Made by a program: the position numbers and the translations under genes
Notes under the pieces: generated by a model
Database searches by the model: none
What the model saw: only the letters and a program-made list of their open reading frames with translations
What the model was told of the DNA's origin: nothing
Shown: in pieces, positions 1 to 43,570 of the stretch
Position numbering within the stretch: position 1 is the first letter of the stretch
How the letters are laid out: every line of letters begins with the position of its first letter
From: a virus
Strand: one strand, 5' to 3'
Length of the DNA: 43,570 bases
Virus record (IMG/VR): IMGVR_UViG_3300027852_000016
Coordinates: 1 to 43,570 of that record

Positions 1-127
1 GCAGCATACTTAAGCTCAATGGATCAATACTATGCAGAGCTTGAGGAGTCAACTAGGCAATTCAACGAAACCATGGCTTGGTCTCAAGAAAGCTTTAAGT
101 TGGCAGCAGATGCAAAGAGATGGGAGA
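1..127. repeat. terminal direct repeat, copy 1 (identical to 43444-43570)
   Basis: Read directly: the first 127 nt (gcagcatacttaagctcaatgg...agatgggaga) recur exactly as the last 127 nt. An ORF is continuous across the join. Confidence 0.9.
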
Positions 128-5958: not shown

Positions 5959-6291
5959 ATGTTTGAGAAAGCTATAGAAGCGAATAGGGTTGAAAGGATA
6001 AAGGTTATCTCTAAGGAGGTTATCAAGGTAGAGAGAATCGTTTTCATTAATAACGCAGGTAAGAATGCTGGTGAAATACATAAAACATATAGATATCATG
6101 GAGATATCCTAAAAGAAAAGACCACCAGGATGATAGGAGCTAAGAAAGAAAAGAGCTTTATAAAAGATATAATGAATAAACTCATGGGAAAGAAAGATGT
6201 TATCATGATAGAGAAACCTAACCGCACCATCATTCAAACAAAGATGGGCAAAGGAGTAGCTAAAGATGGCATGGAAGCCGATAAACGTTAG
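5959..6291 (+). CDS. hypothetical protein (110 aa from ATG 5959; the track starts at GTG 5944)
   Basis: GAAGGAG precedes ATG 5959. Lys-rich product. Confidence 0.6.
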   Translation: MFEKAIEANRVERIKVISKEVIKVERIVFINNAGKNAGEIHKTYRYHGDILKEKTTRMIGAKKEKSFIKDIMNKLMGKKDVIMIEKPNRTIIQTKMGKGVAKDGMEADKR

Positions 6292-8200
6292 ATTGTTTAA
6301 AGGCAAAGCGGCAGCACCCACAGTCAACGAAGATATTAACGATGGCTATGAAGTGGGTGATTGCTGGCTTGATGAGATGAATGATGCATCTTATCAATGC
6401 CTTGATAACACTGCTGGAGCTGCGGTATGGGAATCTATATCTGGAGCTGTATCAGATCATGGAGACTTAAGTGGGCTGCAGGGTGGAGACACTGATGAAT
6501 ACTATCATCTATCCTCGGCAAACTACACTGACCTTACAGACAGTAATGCAACCATATTACATAAACATAGTCATAACTTACAGGATGACTTACAAGGAGG
6601 TACAACTGACGAATATTACCATCTAACATCAGCCAACCATACAGATCTGACAGACGCTGGAGCTACTACACTCCATAAGCACGACCATGGTGGTATGGAT
6701 GGGTTAGGAGATGATGACCATACCATATACATAAAGGCTGATGGGACAAGAAGTTTCACCGGTGGAGTGTCAATAAGTGAATCTACAACTAATGAAGAAT
6801 CAACAGGTGTAGATGTCAACAAGACTATAACGTCCAATTCAGAAGGTTCATACACAACTATAGGAAATAGGGTGAGGGTGTATTCTAGTGGTTCAGCCAA
6901 AAATACTGGATACATCGTAGGTGAAGATCTCCGTGCGTACGGAGGGGTTAACAACCTTGCACGTATTGAAGCTTTGAAGCTTGTATATGGTAATGCTTCT
7001 GGGGATACCGGAACAACTGATTATGCTTACGGTTTAAGGATATATCCATATAGTCAAGCAGGTACGGTTTCCAGCATGAGGGATATCTACTTGTCTCCAG
7101 ATGTAACGGGTGGTACTATGACACAGGGCCACGGTATTTACCAGGCGAATACTAAAGACAACTATTTCGCTGGTGACATTAAAACTAACAAGAACCTTGA
7201 AGTGGTTGGCACAACAGAGCTTACTGGTGATGTGACCTTTAATACCAATAATATAACTGTTGATGGTACAACTGGTAATATAGTAGCTGGTGGATCACTT
7301 GACCTGTCAGACACGTTAGATATAACCCTTAATTCAATTGATTCATGGACTAATGCTATAGACATTAACAGGACGATCACAACGAATGCTGAAGCATCCC
7401 AGTACAATAAAGGCCTTTATGTATCTATGAAGACATCAGGGACTCATAAAAATACTGGTTACACTAAGGGGTTTCATTCTGAGGTTTTTGGTGGTGTTAA
7501 TAATAATACGCAGATATCATCAATGGACATAACATATGGTACATATACCGGTGATACTGGTACGATTGATAGTGCATATGGGTTAAAGGTAACGCCATAT
7601 CGAATGGCTGGGACTATAACTAACGCCTACGATATATATATTAGTGCAGAAATAACAGGTGGCACAGTAACTAACACATACGGTATTTATCAAGCTAACA
7701 CTAAAGATAATTATCTAGCAGGTGATCTTGAGATAAACAAGACCCTAGCTGTTAACGGTGGGCAGATAGCCTTCCCATCCACAGCCGTTCCAAGTTCAGA
7801 TGCCAACACATTAGATGATTATGAAAAGGGAACATGGACGCCTTCATTAAAGTTTGGTGGGGCTTCAACTGGAATGACTTATGGGACTCAAACTGGTACA
7901 TACGTTAAAATAGGCGATGAAGTTAGAGTGTCTATGAATATAATATTAACGGCTAAAGGTTCTGATACTGGTGATGCCACAATAACTGGTTTACCTTTTA
8001 CACCTGCCACTTCATTTAGGGTTGCCGGTTCTGTTCAGTCGAATAGGATATTATTTGATGGTACTATTAGGGCATATATAGTTAGCTCCACAACTATAAC
8101 CCTGAAAGAAACACCAGAAGATGGGTACAATGCAGATCTTGTATCTGGTGACTTCGCTGATGTATCAGACATAAGTATAACTTTCACATACGAAGTATGA
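6266..8200 (+). CDS. tail fibre / receptor-binding protein (644 aa)
   Basis: The N-terminal W.D...Y.C.D.TAGAAVW block and tandem GG.TDEYYHL...LHKH.H repeats are typical of phage fibres. It also carries a large internal duplication. GGAG lies upstream of the ATG. Confidence 0.7.
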   Translation: MAWKPINVRLFKGKAAAPTVNEDINDGYEVGDCWLDEMNDASYQCLDNTAGAAVWESISGAVSDHGDLSGLQGGDTDEYYHLSSANYTDLTDSNATILHKHSHNLQDDLQGGTTDEYYHLTSANHTDLTDAGATTLHKHDHGGMDGLGDDDHTIYIKADGTRSFTGGVSISESTTNEESTGVDVNKTITSNSEGSYTTIGNRVRVYSSGSAKNTGYIVGEDLRAYGGVNNLARIEALKLVYGNASGDTGTTDYAYGLRIYPYSQAGTVSSMRDIYLSPDVTGGTMTQGHGIYQANTKDNYFAGDIKTNKNLEVVGTTELTGDVTFNTNNITVDGTTGNIVAGGSLDLSDTLDITLNSIDSWTNAIDINRTITTNAEASQYNKGLYVSMKTSGTHKNTGYTKGFHSEVFGGVNNNTQISSMDITYGTYTGDTGTIDSAYGLKVTPYRMAGTITNAYDIYISAEITGGTVTNTYGIYQANTKDNYLAGDLEINKTLAVNGGQIAFPSTAVPSSDANTLDDYEKGTWTPSLKFGGASTGMTYGTQTGTYVKIGDEVRVSMNIILTAKGSDTGDATITGLPFTPATSFRVAGSVQSNRILFDGTIRAYIVSSTTITLKETPEDGYNADLVSGDFADVSDISITFTYEV

Positions 8201-8903: not shown

Positions 8904-8910
8904 AGTGTTA

Positions 8911-8953
8911 AAGGCAGCAAGGTGACTAAACTCATCTTGCTGCCTTTTTTTTT
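8911..8953 (+). terminator. rho-independent terminator closing the late/virion operon
   Basis: 11-bp stem aaggcagcaag / cttgctgcctt with a 14-nt loop, followed by a T-run of 9. Confidence 0.85.
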
Positions 8954-9288
8954 ATGTCTAAACTGGATTAAAGTGGGATTCGCTATATCAAATATTAAGC
9001 CTAAATTAGAGAGCTGAGTAGGTTTTATATTATATTAGATATCAGTACAAGCTTAGGGTATAGTTCATGCGACCAGGTGTCGCTATAGATGCTTTAACAA
9101 GCATCACTGCTAGACAGATAGGCTTATATTAGCTATATTAGTCGCACATTGAGTTTTAAAAATTATATTATATGGAGAGGTGGTATTTTTTCAAAATTAT
9201 ATTATATAGGGAGTCGCTATTCATCCCCATCAGCCCAATGTTAGAACCCCCCAACGGAATTAGTTTGTACTAACTTCGATAGACATGT

Positions 9289-9487
9289 CTAACATCGCTA
9301 GGTTTGTCTATCTAAGAACGTTAGGTAAGTCTAACGGTGTTAGAATACCCTAACTTGGTTAGGTGGATCTAACTGGGCGAGGGGGTATATATACAAGGAT
9401 CACGTACTAACAACAGTAGACTAAGCTAATATTCTTAGATATATCTAACTATGTTAGGCTTATCTAACTCTGTTAGGTGTGTCTAAC
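9289..9487. repeat. cluster of CTAAC-N3-GTTAG palindromes (operator-like)
   Basis: Full sites at 9331-9343, 9350-9362, 9445-9457 and 9464-9476, plus an imperfect site at 9289-9301. Half-sites at 9320, 9369, 9407 and 9483. Confidence 0.6.
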
Positions 9488-9520
9488 TATACATCAATCT
9501 ATTAAAAGATATTAATAAAA

Positions 9521-9560
9521 CTATCTAGAAATATCCTGATCTATCCCGACCTATCCTGAT
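9521..9560. repeat. four tandem 10-bp units (ctatctagaa atatcctgat ctatcccgac ctatcctgat)
   Basis: Read directly. Exact 10-bp period. Confidence 0.6.
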
Positions 9561-9838
9561 ATTAGCCCATACCTAGGTAAGGGTTAGGGTGAGAACGTCC
9601 AACCTCGTGGCTCTATGCGATCTTATATAATGGTATGATATTACTTTATCTAGTATCTTAAAGTTTCTAGGCACAAGATATGGGATAATATGAGGTTTTG
9701 TGGGGGTTGAGATGGTTTCAGGTGGGGGTGGAAGGGGTGGGAGGATTACCTTTCCGCCCAAATCCGCCCCAATCCAAATCCTAATCTCCCTTATATAATG
9801 GTATAAATCACCCTAAGTTGGCCCAATCCCTGATAAAT

Positions 9839-9889
9839 GTCTCAAATAACCGTCTCAAGTGTCTCAAAAAGTGTCTCAAAGTGTCTCAT
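9839..9889. repeat. five direct GTCTCA(A/T) iterons
   Basis: Copies start at 9839, 9852, 9861, 9873 and 9883. Spacings are 13, 9, 12 and 10 bp, about one helical turn. Confidence 0.6.
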
Positions 9890-9896
9890 TAGTATG

Positions 9897-9913
9897 GTGA
9901 CAAAAATTGTCAC
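9897..9913. repeat. perfect palindrome GTGACA-AAAAT-TGTCAC
   Basis: Read directly. It lies immediately after the iterons. Confidence 0.6.
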
Positions 9914-10194
9914 TTTGTTACAATAATTGCTCCTGTTTTATAAGTCACTGTTATCCTTACCCTAACATCCACTTTTACCACCTAATATCCCACCTTTTAC
10001 CACTTTGTGGTACAATTTACGTTACGACTTCACATTATCCACTTTCATAGTATAACACACCTTAATCAATCCTAACCTAGTATTATCAATCACTTATGAA
10101 ATAGTTTGACCTTTTCACCTAGTTTGGCACGAGTCTCGCACTACTAGATGCCAACTTGGAGATAAAACTTTAATAAAACTTTAGGGAGTCAATC

Positions 10195-10461: not shown

Positions 10462-10533
10462 TCAGGTAGATAGGGCAATGACTAAGCCGATTAGGTTGAA
10501 TTATTGCCCTTAACTATAAAACAGGGGTCAATC

Positions 10534-10839
10534 ATGGATAAAGCAAGGTTAAAGAGATTGATTGAGATTGAAACTTCAGCAAGTGACACCACCTTGAAGA
10601 GTTCAAGTGACGTTAAAGAGCACAACAACAATACTGAATTAGCTAGGCAAGACATGATTGACGCCCTAATGGCAGGGAAAGTCTTGAGTTATAACGGTTT
10701 GACTGTAATGTTTAGGGATAGCATAGAAGTCTATAAATATGATAAAGAAGGCTTCTTTGATAGGATAGCTGATTATGAGTGGTATACTGTAAATTCAGGA
10801 ATACTCTTAAGATTTATGGTAACTTTGAATAGAATTTAA
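10534..10839 (+). CDS. early protein, tandem paralog A (101 aa from ATG 10534)
   Basis: MDKARLKRLIEIETSASD... is highly similar to the product of 10933-11235. ATG preceded by ggggtcaatc. Confidence 0.7.
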   Translation: MDKARLKRLIEIETSASDTTLKSSSDVKEHNNNTELARQDMIDALMAGKVLSYNGLTVMFRDSIEVYKYDKEGFFDRIADYEWYTVNSGILLRFMVTLNRI

Positions 10840-10850
10840 CCCCTTAAAAA

Positions 10851-10919
10851 GTACCTGTAGCTCAATGGCTGCCTACGTTTCCCAGCTTTTGAGTCGACCT
10901 TGAGCGCAGGTATATTTTT
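10851..10919 (+). terminator. long interrupted hairpin plus T-run between the tandem paralogs (terminator or attenuator candidate)
   Basis: Stem 1 pairs 10852-10857 with 10907-10912. Stem 2 pairs 10860-10865 with 10900-10905. Followed by tatattttt. Confidence 0.5.
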
Positions 10920-10932
10920 AAATGAGTCAATC

Positions 10933-11235
10933 ATGGATAAAGCAAGGTTAAAGAGATTGATTGAGGTTGAAACTTCAGCGAGTGACACCATCTTAAATGG
11001 TTTAAGTGACGTTGAAGAACACAATAACAATACCGAATTAGCCAGGCAAGATATAATCGATACCCTTAAAGCATGGAAAACCTTGAACTATGACGGTTTG
11101 ACTGTAATGTTTAGGGATAATATAGAGATTTACAAGTATGATAAGGATGGTTTTTTTGATAGGATCGCTAATTATGAATGGGATACTATGAGCTCAGGCA
11201 ACCTCTTAAGGATGGTCTCTTTAAGCCAGAAGTAA
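10933..11235 (+). CDS. early protein, tandem paralog B (100 aa)
   Basis: MDKARLKRLIEVETSASD... Same length class and same upstream gagtcaatcATG as paralog A. Confidence 0.7.
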   Translation: MDKARLKRLIEVETSASDTILNGLSDVEEHNNNTELARQDIIDTLKAWKTLNYDGLTVMFRDNIEIYKYDKDGFFDRIANYEWDTMSSGNLLRMVSLSQK

Positions 11236-11249
11236 ACAGGGAGTTAATC

Positions 11250-11534
11250 ATGGATAAAAAACAATTCATAGAAGAACATGGTGAACTAGGAAGGGAACTA
11301 TTAGATACCCTTAACGACAACCTAGAAGATGCTATAAAAACCATGGAAGAAAACTATTTAGGGTGTTATAAGTCAGTGGCCGATTACGCAGAGCAATATG
11401 TTGACAGCTACGGTGCAGACATCCCAGACTTTTTAAATCCATATATTGATTTTGATGGTTTAGGATGGGATATGATGGATGATTGTATCGTTATTGAACT
11501 TATTAAAGGAGAAGTTTATATATTTGACCTTTAG
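11250..11534 (+). CDS. ArdA C-terminal-domain-like protein (94 aa), anti-restriction candidate
   Basis: FIEEHGELGRELL...EENYLGCYKSVADYAEQYVDSYGADIPDFLNPYIDFDGLGWDM...GEVYIF matches by eye the C-terminal third of ArdA. Tn916 ArdA reads ...MYDVARYYIEETGALGEVPASLQNYIDYQAYGRDL...GIFEI. Acidic. Early position. Confidence 0.5.
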   Translation: MDKKQFIEEHGELGRELLDTLNDNLEDAIKTMEENYLGCYKSVADYAEQYVDSYGADIPDFLNPYIDFDGLGWDMMDDCIVIELIKGEVYIFDL

Positions 11535-11621
11535 GAGTTAATCATGATAACACCAGTATGCATTTTGGCGCTAGCTTATATAATGTTAAGAGACTTAATG
11601 AGATCATAAGGAGATCATAAA

Positions 11622-20138: not shown

Positions 20139-20447
20139 ATGAAAAGCTTTAATGAGACAATCGAAGACATCTTACAGGAAGCAAGGGATACGATATCAGC
20201 TAAGGGTACAGAATATATGGTTGGGTTAGATCCTTTTCACGTATTCCATGAGGCTGGCAGGATTACAGGGAAGACACCACAACAGGCAGCGTGGGCTATA
20301 GCTATCAAGCATTTGGTAAGCGTGATTGATGTAATAAAATATGATAGAGGAAACGACCTAGATTTAATTAAAGAAAAGTTTGGAGACTTGCGTAACTACT
20401 TGATATTGATAGAGGCTTCATGGAGGATGGAGAAGGAGGATGGGTAA
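20139..20447 (+). CDS. all-alpha MazG/DUF1599-like nucleotide pyrophosphohydrolase-fold protein (102 aa), tentative
   Basis: The pattern AKGTEY...F.....G.........IKHLVS.ID....D....KEKFGDLRNYLILIE recalls MazG-like or nucleotide-modification-associated helical domains. From memory only. Confidence 0.3.
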   Translation: MKSFNETIEDILQEARDTISAKGTEYMVGLDPFHVFHEAGRITGKTPQQAAWAIAIKHLVSVIDVIKYDRGNDLDLIKEKFGDLRNYLILIEASWRMEKEDG

Positions 20448-20919
20448 GAAAAAGTTAACACAGAAGAGGCTTAAGGAGCTGTTGAGGTATGACCCGGAGA
20501 CTGGTGAGTTTTACCGATTAGTTACTTGTGGTGGAAGGGTTGAGGGATCTATTACTGGTGGACGGCACCATAGCGGTTATTGGCATATAAGAATCGACAG
20601 GAAGAAATACAACCGATCACGTCTAGCATTCTTATATATGAAAGGTTACACCCCAGAGTATGAGATTGACCATATCAACAGGGTAAAAGATGATGATCGA
20701 TGGGTAAACCTTCGGCACGTGACACATAGATGTAACATGCAAAATAAAGAGATTAATATTAACAATACATCTGGTGTGATGGGAATTTATTGGCATAAGA
20801 ATCGTAGAAAATGGCAAGTGAAATACTCAGATAAATACTTTGGTCTTTACCGAGATTTCTCTAGGGCATATTATGCAAACAAAACTATACGAGCAAAGTT
20901 TAGAACTTGCTTCGCATAA
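20440..20919 (+). CDS. HNH homing endonuclease with AP2-like DNA-binding domain (159 aa), apparently intact
   Basis: EIDHINRVKDDDRWVNLRHVTHRCNMQN is the HNH core. SGVMGIYWHKNRRKWQVKY is AP2-like. The N-terminal LKELLRYDPETGEFY domain is also present. Confidence 0.75.
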   Translation: MGKKKLTQKRLKELLRYDPETGEFYRLVTCGGRVEGSITGGRHHSGYWHIRIDRKKYNRSRLAFLYMKGYTPEYEIDHINRVKDDDRWVNLRHVTHRCNMQNKEININNTSGVMGIYWHKNRRKWQVKYSDKYFGLYRDFSRAYYANKTIRAKFRTCFA

Positions 20920-20930
20920 GAGGGTAACTA

Positions 20931-21725
20931 ATGGAAATAATTTATAAACGGATAGATTACAGCGAGCTTAAAAGCATAAGGCTGCGGCCAATTTATGACG
21001 CACACGTGGGAAATGAATTATGTGATGAAGCAGCCCTAAAAGCTTACATCTCATGCCGTGATGATAACCTCTTCTATATAAATGGTGGGGATTTTTTGGA
21101 TGCTATAACTGTCCGTGATCCAAGATACAGTAAGAGTATCGATAAAACAACGTCATCAGCTATTATTGATGAGCAGATAGAAATGGCATGTGACCTCTTA
21201 AGCCCTATCAAAGATAAGTTTATAGGCTTTGGAACTGGTAATCACGAAGCAACTATATTAAAGCACTCAGGCACTGATCCTACCAGGCGCATCTGTAAGG
21301 CACTAGACTTGACGTACGCTGGATACTCATGTTACTACAAGCTTGCACTGAGTAATAAGGGTAGCGGTGGTCGTACAGTCCGTATACGAGCACACCACGG
21401 AGCAGGTGGAGGTAGAACTGGTGGTGCAAGTTTAACTAGATATGAGAAAGACCTCAAGTCTTACGATGCGGACATATTTCTTTTTGGTCATTCACACGGA
21501 AAGGTCTTTAGAGCTTATCCGCAATTTAGTATTTCTGGGAAGCGTAACTTCATAGCAAAGGAAAGATATATTATAGAGTGTGGCACATTTCTTAAGACAA
21601 TGCAAGAAGGCGTAACTAGTTATTCTGAATTAGCAAACTATCCGCCCACTACCCTTGGTGGTTTTGAGATTACGATAACACCACAGTCATCTGGTAGGTT
21701 TAAGATTAAAGTGATGGAGGTTTAG
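20931..21725 (+). CDS. calcineurin-like metallophosphoesterase (264 aa)
   Basis: Ordered motifs DAHVGN, GGDFLD, GNHE, HHG, GHSHG. Confidence 0.7.
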   Translation: MEIIYKRIDYSELKSIRLRPIYDAHVGNELCDEAALKAYISCRDDNLFYINGGDFLDAITVRDPRYSKSIDKTTSSAIIDEQIEMACDLLSPIKDKFIGFGTGNHEATILKHSGTDPTRRICKALDLTYAGYSCYYKLALSNKGSGGRTVRIRAHHGAGGGRTGGASLTRYEKDLKSYDADIFLFGHSHGKVFRAYPQFSISGKRNFIAKERYIIECGTFLKTMQEGVTSYSELANYPPTTLGGFEITITPQSSGRFKIKVMEV

Positions 21726-22171
21726 TGAAAAAGTATAATGAGATTATAAAATTCCTAAAGAAATCGAAGATTAAATCTAGTACTGATAGAACTTTCTTTG
21801 ATGAAACAGTTAATAATATGTATATAGAGATGTGTAATACCGGAGAAGCTGCAACTAAGAAAGTCTTTCAAAGAGTGGTGCAGAGACAGAAACGGTTTGA
21901 TACCTCGAACGGTATGGTAAAGAGCTTAGATAATCCATCGACTAAAGATATTTATGATGCACCAGATGCTCACTTGAAGACGCATCCACCTTGCTCAGAG
22001 GAACAGCTCATAGAAATTATAGACCATAACGACCACCTAGAGTTCATGAAAGACGTGAAGCCTTGTATCTATCCTATGACTATGGATGAGCATTTAGCAT
22101 CTATCAGAAAAACAAAATTAGCTAGGCGAAAACGAAAGGCTGCCATTAAAAAGAAGAATGGCCGAATGTAA
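21725..22171 (+). CDS. hypothetical protein (148 aa), basic C-terminus, GTG start
   Basis: Track ORF. The GTG overlaps the previous TAG by 1 nt. Confidence 0.6.
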   Translation: MKKYNEIIKFLKKSKIKSSTDRTFFDETVNNMYIEMCNTGEAATKKVFQRVVQRQKRFDTSNGMVKSLDNPSTKDIYDAPDAHLKTHPPCSEEQLIEIIDHNDHLEFMKDVKPCIYPMTMDEHLASIRKTKLARRKRKAAIKKKNGRM

Positions 22172-22853
22172 TGAAAACTATTTCACTCAAGCTGGCTATA
22201 GGTTAACTGAGGAAACAGGACTAGAAAGTTCCGTTTAACTGAACATACTATATAGGGGTAAAAGAAATTCATTTTTCTTTATTCTTAGGTTTTTACAGCG
22301 CTTACTTTTCCCTGAGTTCTCTCAAATAAAAAAGCGATATATAAAAGTCTTCATCTAAGATGACACTTTTATAAAAGGATTTTAATATACTCTGCGTCAT
22401 CCTTATATAACAGACAGGGTAAAGAAGGACACACCGAAAGGCTGTGCGTTTGGAATAGTAAAGCTTACATAGAACAAATCATACACCATGTCCATCTTTA
22501 ATAGACGGATGTCAGTTGAGTGGAATTCAGCTTCACTCCCTGGATAAATAGTGGTTATATCGTGGTATTCAAGTGTTGAGTGAAGATGGCCTCAGCTACC
22601 TCCGGTTCTTTACCTTCCCGGAATTAATTAAGGTCATCGATAAAGACATGGTTGAACAATATTGCTGAGTACAGAGTGTAGGAGTGATAGCCTACGAGTT
22701 ATTAGGACATTAACTCAATGTGTAAATGTATCCATGGCCATAGTGGTGCCTCTTCTTTCTAGGAAAGTTGCTATATTTCTTAGTCTGTCCTAAGGGGTAC
22801 CACGTATAGTCTATATGACCGAGTTGCGTCCAAATTTTATATAAGGAGATATA
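22172..22853 (+). ncRNA. 682-nt ORF-free island; candidate large structured RNA or leader (class unknown)
   Basis: No ORF of 60 aa or more in any frame. By hand, the longest peptides are about 30 aa. Multiple hairpins include a GAAA-tetraloop hairpin (22430-22446) and a three-way junction (22743-22803). Confidence 0.35.
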
Positions 22854-23084
22854 ATGGAATCCGTAACAACAGATTCTTTAAAAGATATTCCAGTATGTAG
22901 AAAGCTTGAGATGGAGAAGTTAACAAATTACTGTGTTAGGAATAAATTAGATAATATCTATTATAGAAAATCGTTTTGGTTGGTCTATGCTATAAATAAT
23001 GGAGAAGTGTTCCATTACAATACTCACTACCAAAGGGTTGAGAAATGGTCTACTCAAGTTATGTTAAGTCAGCAGGTTTTTTGA
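22854..23084 (+). CDS. hypothetical protein (76 aa)
   Basis: Track ORF. AAGGAG upstream. Confidence 0.65.
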   Translation: MESVTTDSLKDIPVCRKLEMEKLTNYCVRNKLDNIYYRKSFWLVYAINNGEVFHYNTHYQRVEKWSTQVMLSQQVF

Positions 23085-23283: not shown

Positions 23284-23468
23284 TGAGGTGTAACATGAAA
23301 GACGATAAGATAGAAATAATATCGCGGGATGAATGTTTTAATAGTGATTATAGGGTTATGACCATAGACGAGGTTGTTAATACATTCTTTAAAGATATCT
23401 TTAATACTGGGGTTAACAATGAGGAGGAAGACTTTTGGAAAAAATTAGAGAAGACAACGAGCAAGTAG
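23283..23468 (+). CDS. hypothetical protein (61 aa; alternative ATG at 23295)
   Basis: Track ORF. GAGG precedes ATG 23295. Confidence 0.6.
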   Translation: MRCNMKDDKIEIISRDECFNSDYRVMTIDEVVNTFFKDIFNTGVNNEEEDFWKKLEKTTSK

Positions 23469-23476
23469 TAGTAGAT

Positions 23477-43397: not shown

Positions 43398-43570
43398 GCC
43401 TGGAACATATGAAGATGCACTCAGGGCTGAAGCACAGAAGCAAGCAGCATACTTAAGCTCAATGGATCAATACTATGCAGAGCTTGAGGAGTCAACTAGG
43501 CAATTCAACGAAACCATGGCTTGGTCTCAAGAAAGCTTTAAGTTGGCAGCAGATGCAAAGAGATGGGAGA
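43348..43570 (+). CDS. 5' part of the junction-spanning gene (full product about 212 aa, charged coiled-coil-like virion-module protein)
   Basis: ATG at 43348 (MANGIGLFLPSEAAYSRPGTYEDALRAEAQKQAAYLSSMDQYY...) runs in frame into the repeat. It continues as track ORF 19..543 once the overlap is collapsed. Confidence 0.65.
   Translation, partial: MANGIGLFLPSEAAYSRPGTYEDALRAEAQKQAAYLSSMDQYYAELEESTRQFNETMAWSQESFKLAADAKRWE
43444..43570. repeat. terminal direct repeat, copy 2 (identical to 1-127)
   Basis: Same 127-nt string as the window start. Confidence 0.9.

Follow-up and report, generated by a model that had tools for sequence, protein, structure and literature searches.

An ORF-free gap in an uncultured phage genome that probably encodes a new family of large structured non-coding RNA

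What does a compact phage genome keep in several hundred nucleotides of DNA in which no protein is encoded? The question is raised by positions 22172-22853 of the window, that is, of the whole 43,570-nt stretch of DNA analysed here. The gap is 682 nt long and is flanked by a 148-aa ORF (21725-22171) and a 76-aa ORF (22854-23084). A first-pass annotation had called it free of ORFs and a candidate structured RNA, and the former statement is borne out: with both strands checked, no ORF of at least 60 aa overlaps 22172-22853. Its estimate that peptides reach only about 32 aa was too low, as the longest start-to-stop ORF has 43 aa (22662-22793, with a TTG start), and the longest stop-free run, of 62 codons, lies on the minus strand. 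Each of the six frames carries 11-19 stop codons within the gap, and reassigning TGA, TAG or TAA to sense opened no frame across it. The gap is indeed neither AT-rich (GC 0.35-0.40, the same as in the flanks) nor built from repeats; no repeat family touches it and the element is single-copy in the genome. It had also been described as the only long gap besides a control region. When comparison gaps are defined as at least 400 nt without a 60-aa ORF, that region does qualify (8904-10194, split by a 62-aa ORF on the minus strand), but so does 24102-24523, a patch that contains genes of 51 and 59 aa, both kept in relatives. All credible genes of the window are on the + strand.

The window begins and ends with the same 127 nt and is therefore taken as a complete genome of ~43.4 kb. 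Among its products are a DnaB-type helicase and a class II ribonucleotide reductase, a T4-type large terminase, a P22-like portal, an SU10-like capsid protein and several HNH-AP2 endonucleases. Near the element, one HNH endonuclease gene is split, which shows that genes do decay in this genome. The source is an uncultured phage without a close cultured relative: BLASTN with the gap and with 19.5-27.4 kb gave no DNA-level match to GenBank phages, and the terminase is only ~22% identical to that of the nearest cultured phage. The element is located in a replication and nucleotide-metabolism module, preceded by the genes for the DnaB helicase and the exonuclease and followed by that for the ribonucleotide reductase. 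One neighbour accompanies it throughout:

21725-22171, + strand: upstream ORFan gene of 148 aa, always directly 5' of the element.

Homologues of this gene (126-148 aa, lineage-specific) immediately precede the gap in the related contigs L001, L003 and L005. The family has only 4-5 members among 1.8 billion representative proteins, the basic-tailed 148-aa protein has no Pfam or PHROG match, and its AlphaFold2 model, built on a two-sequence alignment, was unusable (pLDDT 58). A neighbouring 264-aa protein likewise has almost no relatives in protein searches. The gene 3' of the element varies; it encodes 76 aa in the window and L003 and 104-116 aa in the other types described below (104 aa in L001).

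Relatives of the locus were collected through the neighbouring exonuclease gene, which led to five IMG/VR contigs, and through a DNA pattern of the element, which led to two JGI contigs. Six distinct copies (the window and five others) are available in total. They fall into three sequence types, type A with the window and L003, type B with L001, L037 and L045, and type C with L005 and its duplicates, and all belong to a single narrow phage lineage. The same phage is present in other samples, without new variation. Outside the lineage, searches with the block A pattern (see below) in IMG/VR, JGI metagenomes and 185,579 genomes returned chance matches only, as did two P10/P11 patterns on IMG/VR. 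An nhmmer profile found no copy in 40 more distant exonuclease-bearing phage contigs, whose ORF-free gaps are unrelated to the element.

According to the first-pass annotation, an intact gene at this position in relatives, or lack of conservation there, would have counted against an RNA. Neither is the case. The region is conserved, and in every contig long enough an ORF-free gap of 600-760 nt directly follows the homologue of the 148-aa gene; in L005-type contigs, the gene callers annotated nothing in it. Six-frame comparison revealed no peptide conserved across the three types, only short runs in all frames that are explained by DNA identity. The alternative of a decayed gene is unsupported, since no peptide is shared among the types beyond these runs. 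The gap DNA is non-coding in all relatives.

The pattern of conservation within the gap is that of an element with fixed ends and a variable interior. It opens and closes with almost invariant blocks, block A at 22287-22316 and block D at 22809-22831, the latter followed by the ribosome-binding site. The parts outside the helices are as follows:

22172-22286, + strand: 5' spacer, from the stop codon of the 148-aa gene to block A, including P0.
22261-22280, + strand: P0, a small hairpin (AAAGAAA/UUUCUUU).
22287-22316, + strand: block A, AGGUUUUUACAGCGCUUACUUUUCCCUGAG, nearly invariant in all six copies and used as the search pattern.
22411-22426, + strand: purine-rich strand AACAGACAGGGUAAAGAA, near-identical between types A and B and proposed to pair with the loops of P3 and P8.
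22809-22853, + strand: block D, GUCUAUAUGACCGAGUUGCGUCC, then AAAUUUUAUAU and the ribosome-binding site AAGGAG (22843-48), with the next ATG at 22854.

DNA identity over the 5' 127 nt of the element is 91% between types A and B, whereas the adjacent protein is only 42-48% identical. The stretch from block D to the ribosome-binding site is nearly identical in types A and B despite the different downstream genes. The central part has diverged like unrelated sequence, yet the order of hairpins is kept and their loops are conserved while the stems differ; loops and joining strands are thus constant where stems are not. Within type A, the first ~385 nt of the window and L003 differ by only five substitutions and two indels, and two of these five substitutions form a compensatory C-G to U-A swap in P8. 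Relatives also differ by the gain or loss of whole hairpins. In type B, two additional hairpins precede the strand AACAGACAGG, and L005 has an insert of ~90 nt after P2. Conservation of the 5' spacer is moderate between types B and C and lower in the window, and immediately 5' of AGGUUUUUA there is a small A/U-rich hairpin that is different in every relative.

The 5' spacer may belong to the RNA, or it may be a weak terminator or promoter DNA; a scan of it gave no convincing sigma-70-type promoter or terminator. Several candidate signals were considered and set aside. A phage-RNA-polymerase promoter at TATAGGGG (22254) was rejected, the motif occurring once and no RNA polymerase domain having been found. 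A sigma-70-type promoter just 5' of block A (TTGACt-17-TAtttc) has poor -10 elements and is degenerate in the window, and a promoter-like site at 22360-22388 falls within P2 and is deleted in L003. Sequestration of the ribosome-binding site as a consistent feature was also dropped, its predicted partners differing by type.

We then examined the helices individually. All hairpins listed by the first-pass annotation are present in the sequence where it had placed them, and those at 22430-22446, 22518-22538, 22601-22622 and 22678-22695 (P4, P6, P8 and P10) are retained in relatives with compensatory changes. The helices are:

22299-22336, + strand: helix P1 (22299-22303/22332-22336) enclosing hairpin P1a (22313-16/22321-24).
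22341-22372, + strand: hairpin P2 (AUAAAAGU...ACUUUUAU), an optional peripheral module.
22375-80/22399-404, + strand: helix P3 (AAGGAU/AUCCUU), with an 18-nt loop that contains ACUCUG (22389-94).
22430-22446, + strand: hairpin P4 with a GAAA tetraloop; loop kept, stems differ.
22518-24/22532-38, + strand: hairpin P6, with a stem of 7 bp and a 7-nt loop, AUUCAGC (22525-31), that is conserved.
22601-05/22618-22, + strand: hairpin P8 with a conserved 11-12-nt loop, UUCUUUACCUUC.
22678-22695, + strand: hairpin P10 (GUAGG/CCUAC) with a conserved loop, AGUGAUAG.
22701-22719, + strand: hairpin P11, with double-sided change in four of six pairs.
22743-22802, + strand: 3' domain, a closing helix GUGGUGCC/GGUACCAC and an inner hairpin (22759-65/22777-83).

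In P1, three substitutions per arm separate L005 from the window (C-G to U-A, U-A to C-G and G-C to G.U) and pairing is preserved. The hairpin first drawn at 22343-22370, our P2, is real but only optional: it is identical in type B, is deleted exactly, as a 35-nt unit, in L003, and is shorter in L005, where the innermost pair has changed from U-A to C-G. The evidence for P3 is weaker. Its stem in L005 reads AUUAGG/CCUAAU, without a column-by-column alignment. The stems of P4 are CACACC/GG(C)UGUG in the window, CCGCUC/GUGUGG in L001 and CUCCCU/AGGGAG in L005, with double-sided change in four of the six pairs.

Judged from the sequences, P6 is the strongest single case of covariation. Its register is fixed because the 7-nt loop, (A/U)UU(C/U)AGC, is conserved. 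All 21 of its 21 cells are canonical in three types with unrelated stems, and five of the seven pairs show double-sided change; P6-like hairpins occur in these sequences at 0.2-0.8% of positions. In P8, the stem is CCGG, CGAG/CUCG or CAGG/CCUG depending on the type, the second position being C-G, G-C or A-U in the three types. The changes in P10 (G-C to A-U or G.U, and U-A to U.G) include wobbles that are possible on the + strand only. P11 had been drawn at 22707-22721; a hairpin does exist there, but its register is better given as 22701-06/22714-19. Its stems are UUAAGU/ACUUAA in L003, UCAAGU/ACUUGG in L001 and CUCAGU/ACUGAG in L005, and the window copy has one A.C mismatch.

The 3' end of the element requires the largest revision. 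A compact three-way junction had been proposed at 22743-22803. The closing helix stands, although it is common to types A and B only: it is present in L003 and, as 5 bp with changes, in type B. The two inner 5-bp hairpins are not conserved, and the caution voiced at the time about 5-bp helices arising by chance was justified for both of them. The relatives favour instead a single hairpin of 7-10 bp inside this interval (22759-65/22777-83), in which pairs are flipped in type B relative to the window. In L003 a short hairpin takes the place of this interior, and in L005 a long hairpin of another kind.

For the pair counts, each helix was placed by the coordinates of the individual sequences, with the conserved loops as anchors, and its pairs were counted in Python, because a plain MAFFT alignment misregisters P6, P8 and P11 by one column. 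Absence of covariation had been named as grounds for abandoning the structural claim. The hand-curated set comprises 12 helices with 64 pairs; of its 347 cells, 336 are canonical (96.8%), 26 of the 64 pairs have double-sided changes, and there are 44 extra pair types. When the 3' partners were slid by 1-3 nt as a control, 37-49% of cells were canonical and 0-6 pairs double-sided. This control flatters the model, as the helices were chosen and aligned by eye from the same sequences. Effectively three or four independent sequences stand behind the counts, and a statistical covariation test such as R-scape is impossible with six copies of three types from one lineage. P1, P1a, P6 and P11 were, in addition, predicted independently in the unconstrained minimum-free-energy (MFE) fold of each type.

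The strand can be assigned from the same pairs. There are 31 G.U pairs on the + strand, which become A.C mismatches on the complement, where canonical pairing drops to 89%; the RNA is therefore read from the + strand. Folding energy had been suggested as a further check, and it is mildly below that of shuffled sequence but equal on both strands, and hence weak evidence alone. The whole-region z is -2.3 on either strand (20 shuffles only), and in sliding 150-nt windows the mean z is about -0.85 in the gap versus +0.18 in the upstream coding sequence. The supported helices cover ~128 of ~570 nt, and about half of the fold of the element remains unplaced. No local fold was found for the P4-P6, P6-P8 and P8-PK2 segments, and constrained folds disagree between types.

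Three conserved loops are complementary to distant strands, and these complementarities lie at homologous sites in relatives. Two of them are designated here as pseudoknot candidates:

22389-94 with 22415-20, + strand: PK1 candidate, P3 loop ACUCUG with CAGGGU, 5-6 bp.
22526-31 with 22664-22669, + strand: PK2 candidate, P6 loop UUCAGC with GCUGAG.

PK1 would be UGCCUG:CAGGUA in L001 and the strand-swapped CAGGU:ACCUG in L005. PK2 would be UUUAGC:GCUAAG in L001 (type B), with a C-G to U-A change, and UUUAGC:GCUAAU in L005, with 5 bp kept. The PK2 strand ranks as the top partner of the P6 loop in the window, L003 and L001 and is tied for first in L045; it is not top in L005. The P8 loop is complementary to AGGGUAAAGAA (22416-26) over 11 nt in the window and L003 and over 7 nt in L001 and L045, and the match is absent from L005. 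PK1 and the P8-loop pairing share the purine strand, and the two may stack side by side or be alternatives. In RNAalifold, block D may instead pair with block A, in which case P1 cannot form. The loop-to-strand matches, of 6-11 nt, suggest pseudoknots.

We next asked whether the element belongs to a known family. At gathering thresholds, Rfam 15 gave nothing in the window or in eleven related loci, except a tRNA in an unrelated contig. Permissive scans (E up to 10) of the gaps of the window, L001 and L005 gave scattered sub-threshold matches, none recurring; L20_leader, for example, appeared in L005 only, at 18.4 bits against a gathering threshold of 58.7 (E 0.78). The precedents put forward by the first-pass annotation, ROOL, GOLLD and group I introns, thus received no Rfam signal. 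Assignment to ROOL, GOLLD, HEARO or OLE, to the group I or II introns, to the small ribozymes or to any known riboswitch or leader is therefore ruled out.

ROOL and GOLLD usually adjoin tRNA genes in phage or prophage DNA. The element resembles both (RF03087 and RF01998, respectively) in being ~550-800 nt long, with many helices, conserved loops and pseudoknot-type contacts, and in being borne by phages or prophages, without a known function and with peripheral hairpins that vary between members. It differs in that it matches neither covariance model, even at E up to 10, and in that ARAGORN found no tRNA in the whole genome and Rfam none near the element in relatives. It is, moreover, wedged between protein genes, runs into a ribosome-binding site and is confined to a single rare lineage. 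ROOL and GOLLD have been found by cryo-EM to form RNA-only homo-oligomers (PMC12286853).

Our reading is that the gap probably encodes a new family of large + strand non-coding RNA that acts as an RNA body. The main rival, which we consider unlikely but serious, is a cis-acting leader or intercistronic control RNA that sets the translation or stability of the small genes downstream, for instance by masking or freeing the ribosome-binding site or by keeping RNases away. It is supported by the position of the element, which lies directly upstream of a ribosome-binding site, like T-box, riboswitch and ribosomal-protein leaders, and ends in this conserved site and a start codon, which stay with the element when another gene follows. 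No terminator separates the element from the following gene, and its direct run into a conserved ribosome-binding site suits a leader no less than a free RNA. Alternative pairings are also possible, as in such leaders: block A with block D in place of P1, and an anti-Shine-Dalgarno-like arm of P3. The 3' arm of P3 in the window, UCCUUAUAUAA (22400-10), could pair without mismatch over 11 nt with the ribosome-binding region at 22837-47, the 5' arm AAGGAU mimics a Shine-Dalgarno sequence, and shorter complements exist in L001 (8 bp) and L005 (6 bp). However, only 5 bp of this match remain in L003, which is the closest relative, partition-function folds predict different partners for the ribosome-binding site in the different types, and the gene that would be regulated is not constant. 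With 570-760 nt, a dozen helices and candidate pseudoknots, the element is also several times larger than known bacterial leaders (3-5 times longer than the classes just named), and no Rfam leader model matches it. A role in replication, as a primer transcript or as a DNA hairpin for primosome loading, appears improbable. RNA II of ColE1 plasmids, ~550 nt long, primes DNA synthesis at the origin. The element resembles it as a structured non-coding transcript of similar size inside a replication module, and no DNA polymerase domain was found among the ten largest ORFs scanned, which is a partial check. Nevertheless, no antisense partner and no signal of an antisense regulator was found, and origin features are missing: there is no skew change at 22.2-22.9 kb, no iterons and no AT-rich unwinding stretch. 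A better origin candidate lies elsewhere, at 8.9-10.2 kb, with repeats, promoter-like repeats and the only bin of negative GC skew. An origin role is unlikely because of these repeats and the negative skew bin at 9-10 kb, and because the G.U pairs on the + strand favour RNA over DNA hairpins.

Two further explanations fare worse on the evidence already given. That the gap is a functionless remnant, a decayed gene or filler conserved only through recency, is very improbable. The lineage is narrow, near-identical parts between contigs could reflect recent exchange, and the split HNH endonuclease gene nearby shows that decay happens; against this, the diverged centre retains the hairpin order, the conserved loops and the compensated stems, the 5' 127 nt of the element are far better conserved (91%) than the protein encoded beside them (42-48%), and no protein trace is conserved. 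An ORF-less self-splicing intron or another large ribozyme is close to untenable, although group I introns are frequent in phage DNA-metabolism modules, homing endonuclease genes are common in this genome and around the element, and its size range, the putative pseudoknotted core, the GNRA loop and the optional peripheral hairpins are ribozyme-like. Context excludes an intron, since each flanking gene forms a cistron of its own and the second of them varies. The element is not within a gene: the ORF before it is closed by a stop codon of its own and varies at its C-terminus, the ORF after it is served by a separate ribosome-binding site, borne by the 3' end of the element, and differs between relatives, and no host gene is split. 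The Rfam models for group I introns (RF00028, with the catalytic core P3-P9), group II introns (with Domain V and other conserved domains) and small ribozymes have no match at E up to 10 in the three types, and no reverse-transcriptase ORF is adjacent.

Taken together, the conserved ORF-free gap, the conservation within it and the compensatory helices support the earlier proposal of a large structured non-coding RNA of unassigned class. The element measures ~570 nt if counted from block A to the ribosome-binding site, or ~680 nt if the whole gap is included. That it is non-coding and under structural constraint rests on solid evidence; the evidence for the details of the fold is moderate, and there is none for a function. 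A narrower version of the same reading is a new RNA class of ~570-760 nt with several pseudoknots, its own tertiary fold and an RNA-borne function, for example ROOL/GOLLD-like assembly, a decoy for host factors or a ribozyme; we regard this as a real possibility and put it forward tentatively. The folded body is favoured by the size, the conserved loops, the pseudoknot-type contacts and the interchangeable peripheral hairpins. We infer that the transcript would fold into a compact body of at least 12 helices, in which the GAAA-capped hairpin and two or three loop-strand pairings would tie distant parts together. The RNA would presumably be made while the DNA-metabolism genes are expressed, within a polycistronic transcript or processed from it, but there are no expression data. 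By analogy with ROOL and GOLLD, it might then act as a scaffold, a particle or a binder of host or phage factors, whereas a simple on/off leader role is disfavoured.

Should the element prove to be a giant leader instead, it would represent unusually elaborate translational control in a phage. As an RNA body, it would join a small group. In bacteria and phages, large RNAs of complex fold are a rarity, and structural or mechanistic questions have come with every new class (RNase P, group I and II introns, OLE, GOLLD, ROOL and raiA). The natural variants, with hairpins present or absent, can guide the design of minimal constructs for probing and cryo-EM. Several of the large RNA classes are phage-borne and still without a known function, and the element described here would be an independent example from a compact 43-kb lytic-type genome, which spends 1.5% of its length on it; a real selective value is thereby implied.

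Over 127 nt, the two ends of the window (1-127 and 43444-43570) match at 100% identity. The window thus represents the whole genome of a phage, about 43.4 kb long, and its shared ends are a terminal repeat or else an overlap left by circular assembly.

The identical phage was also assembled independently from other samples, as contigs L096 and L097. They begin at window positions 22799 and 22839, respectively, so that both assemblies break right at the 3' edge of the ORF-free gap read as a conserved structured non-coding RNA (the element). When the window is aligned with L003, the other contig carrying a type A copy of the element, near-identity drops to clearly lower identity at about 22670, and nearly all of the 33 substitutions lie 3' of that point. 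Both the assembly breaks and this switch in identity suggest that a recombination or strain-mosaic boundary lies within the element. In contig L048, a JGI-listed 'gene' (2381-2749) covers 369 nt within the element and has a product of just 18 residues, which looks like an annotation artefact of the source data.

The element is always preceded on its 5' side by an ORFan gene that is restricted to this lineage:

Window, 21725-22171: ORFan gene
L001 (type B element), 7093-7524: homologue
L003 (type A element), 6795-7226: homologue
L005 (type C element), 6243-6623: homologue

The N-terminal two-thirds of the encoded protein is conserved and the C-terminus is variable, being strongly basic in the window and in L003. 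In L005 the frame continues through DNA that in type B is conserved yet non-coding (GAAATTATAT..TATACTAT).

ORF-free gaps of 590-780 nt are also present in two distant phage relatives, L074 (6022-6804) and L077 (6665-7251), whose exonucleases show 28-29% identity. In each contig the gap lies downstream of the exonuclease gene and no more than about 1 kb from it; the gap sequences are unrelated to the element, and neither locus gave an Rfam match.

A second apparent non-coding gap in the window, at 24102-24523, was ruled out, as small genes are present there. This interval and the HNH-AP2 homing endonuclease genes of the window comprise the following features:

20440-20919: HNH-AP2 homing endonuclease gene, intact
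23580-23855 and 23880-24101: second HNH-AP2 homing endonuclease gene, broken into two ORFs
24180-24359: 59-aa gene, a paralogue of 23435-23614
24362-24517: 51-aa gene, kept in relatives
24113, 24296 and 24523: three copies of a direct repeat

The HNH-AP2 gene in two ORFs is probably a frameshifted pseudogene. HNH genes sit elsewhere in relatives (L003, 9435-9953; L005, 4789-5280 and 9066-9512) and are therefore mobile within this phage lineage.

Of the 500-nt bins, 9501-10000 alone has negative GC skew, and it lies in the other long gap, the control region at 8.9-10.2 kb. Three copies of a promoter-like repeat, CTTATATAATGGTAT, are located inside and shortly after this region (9617-9638, 9785-9806 and 11570-11591), and the repeat is followed by a family of three small paralogous genes in tandem (10504-11534). 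This control region is the better candidate for the early promoters and the origin.
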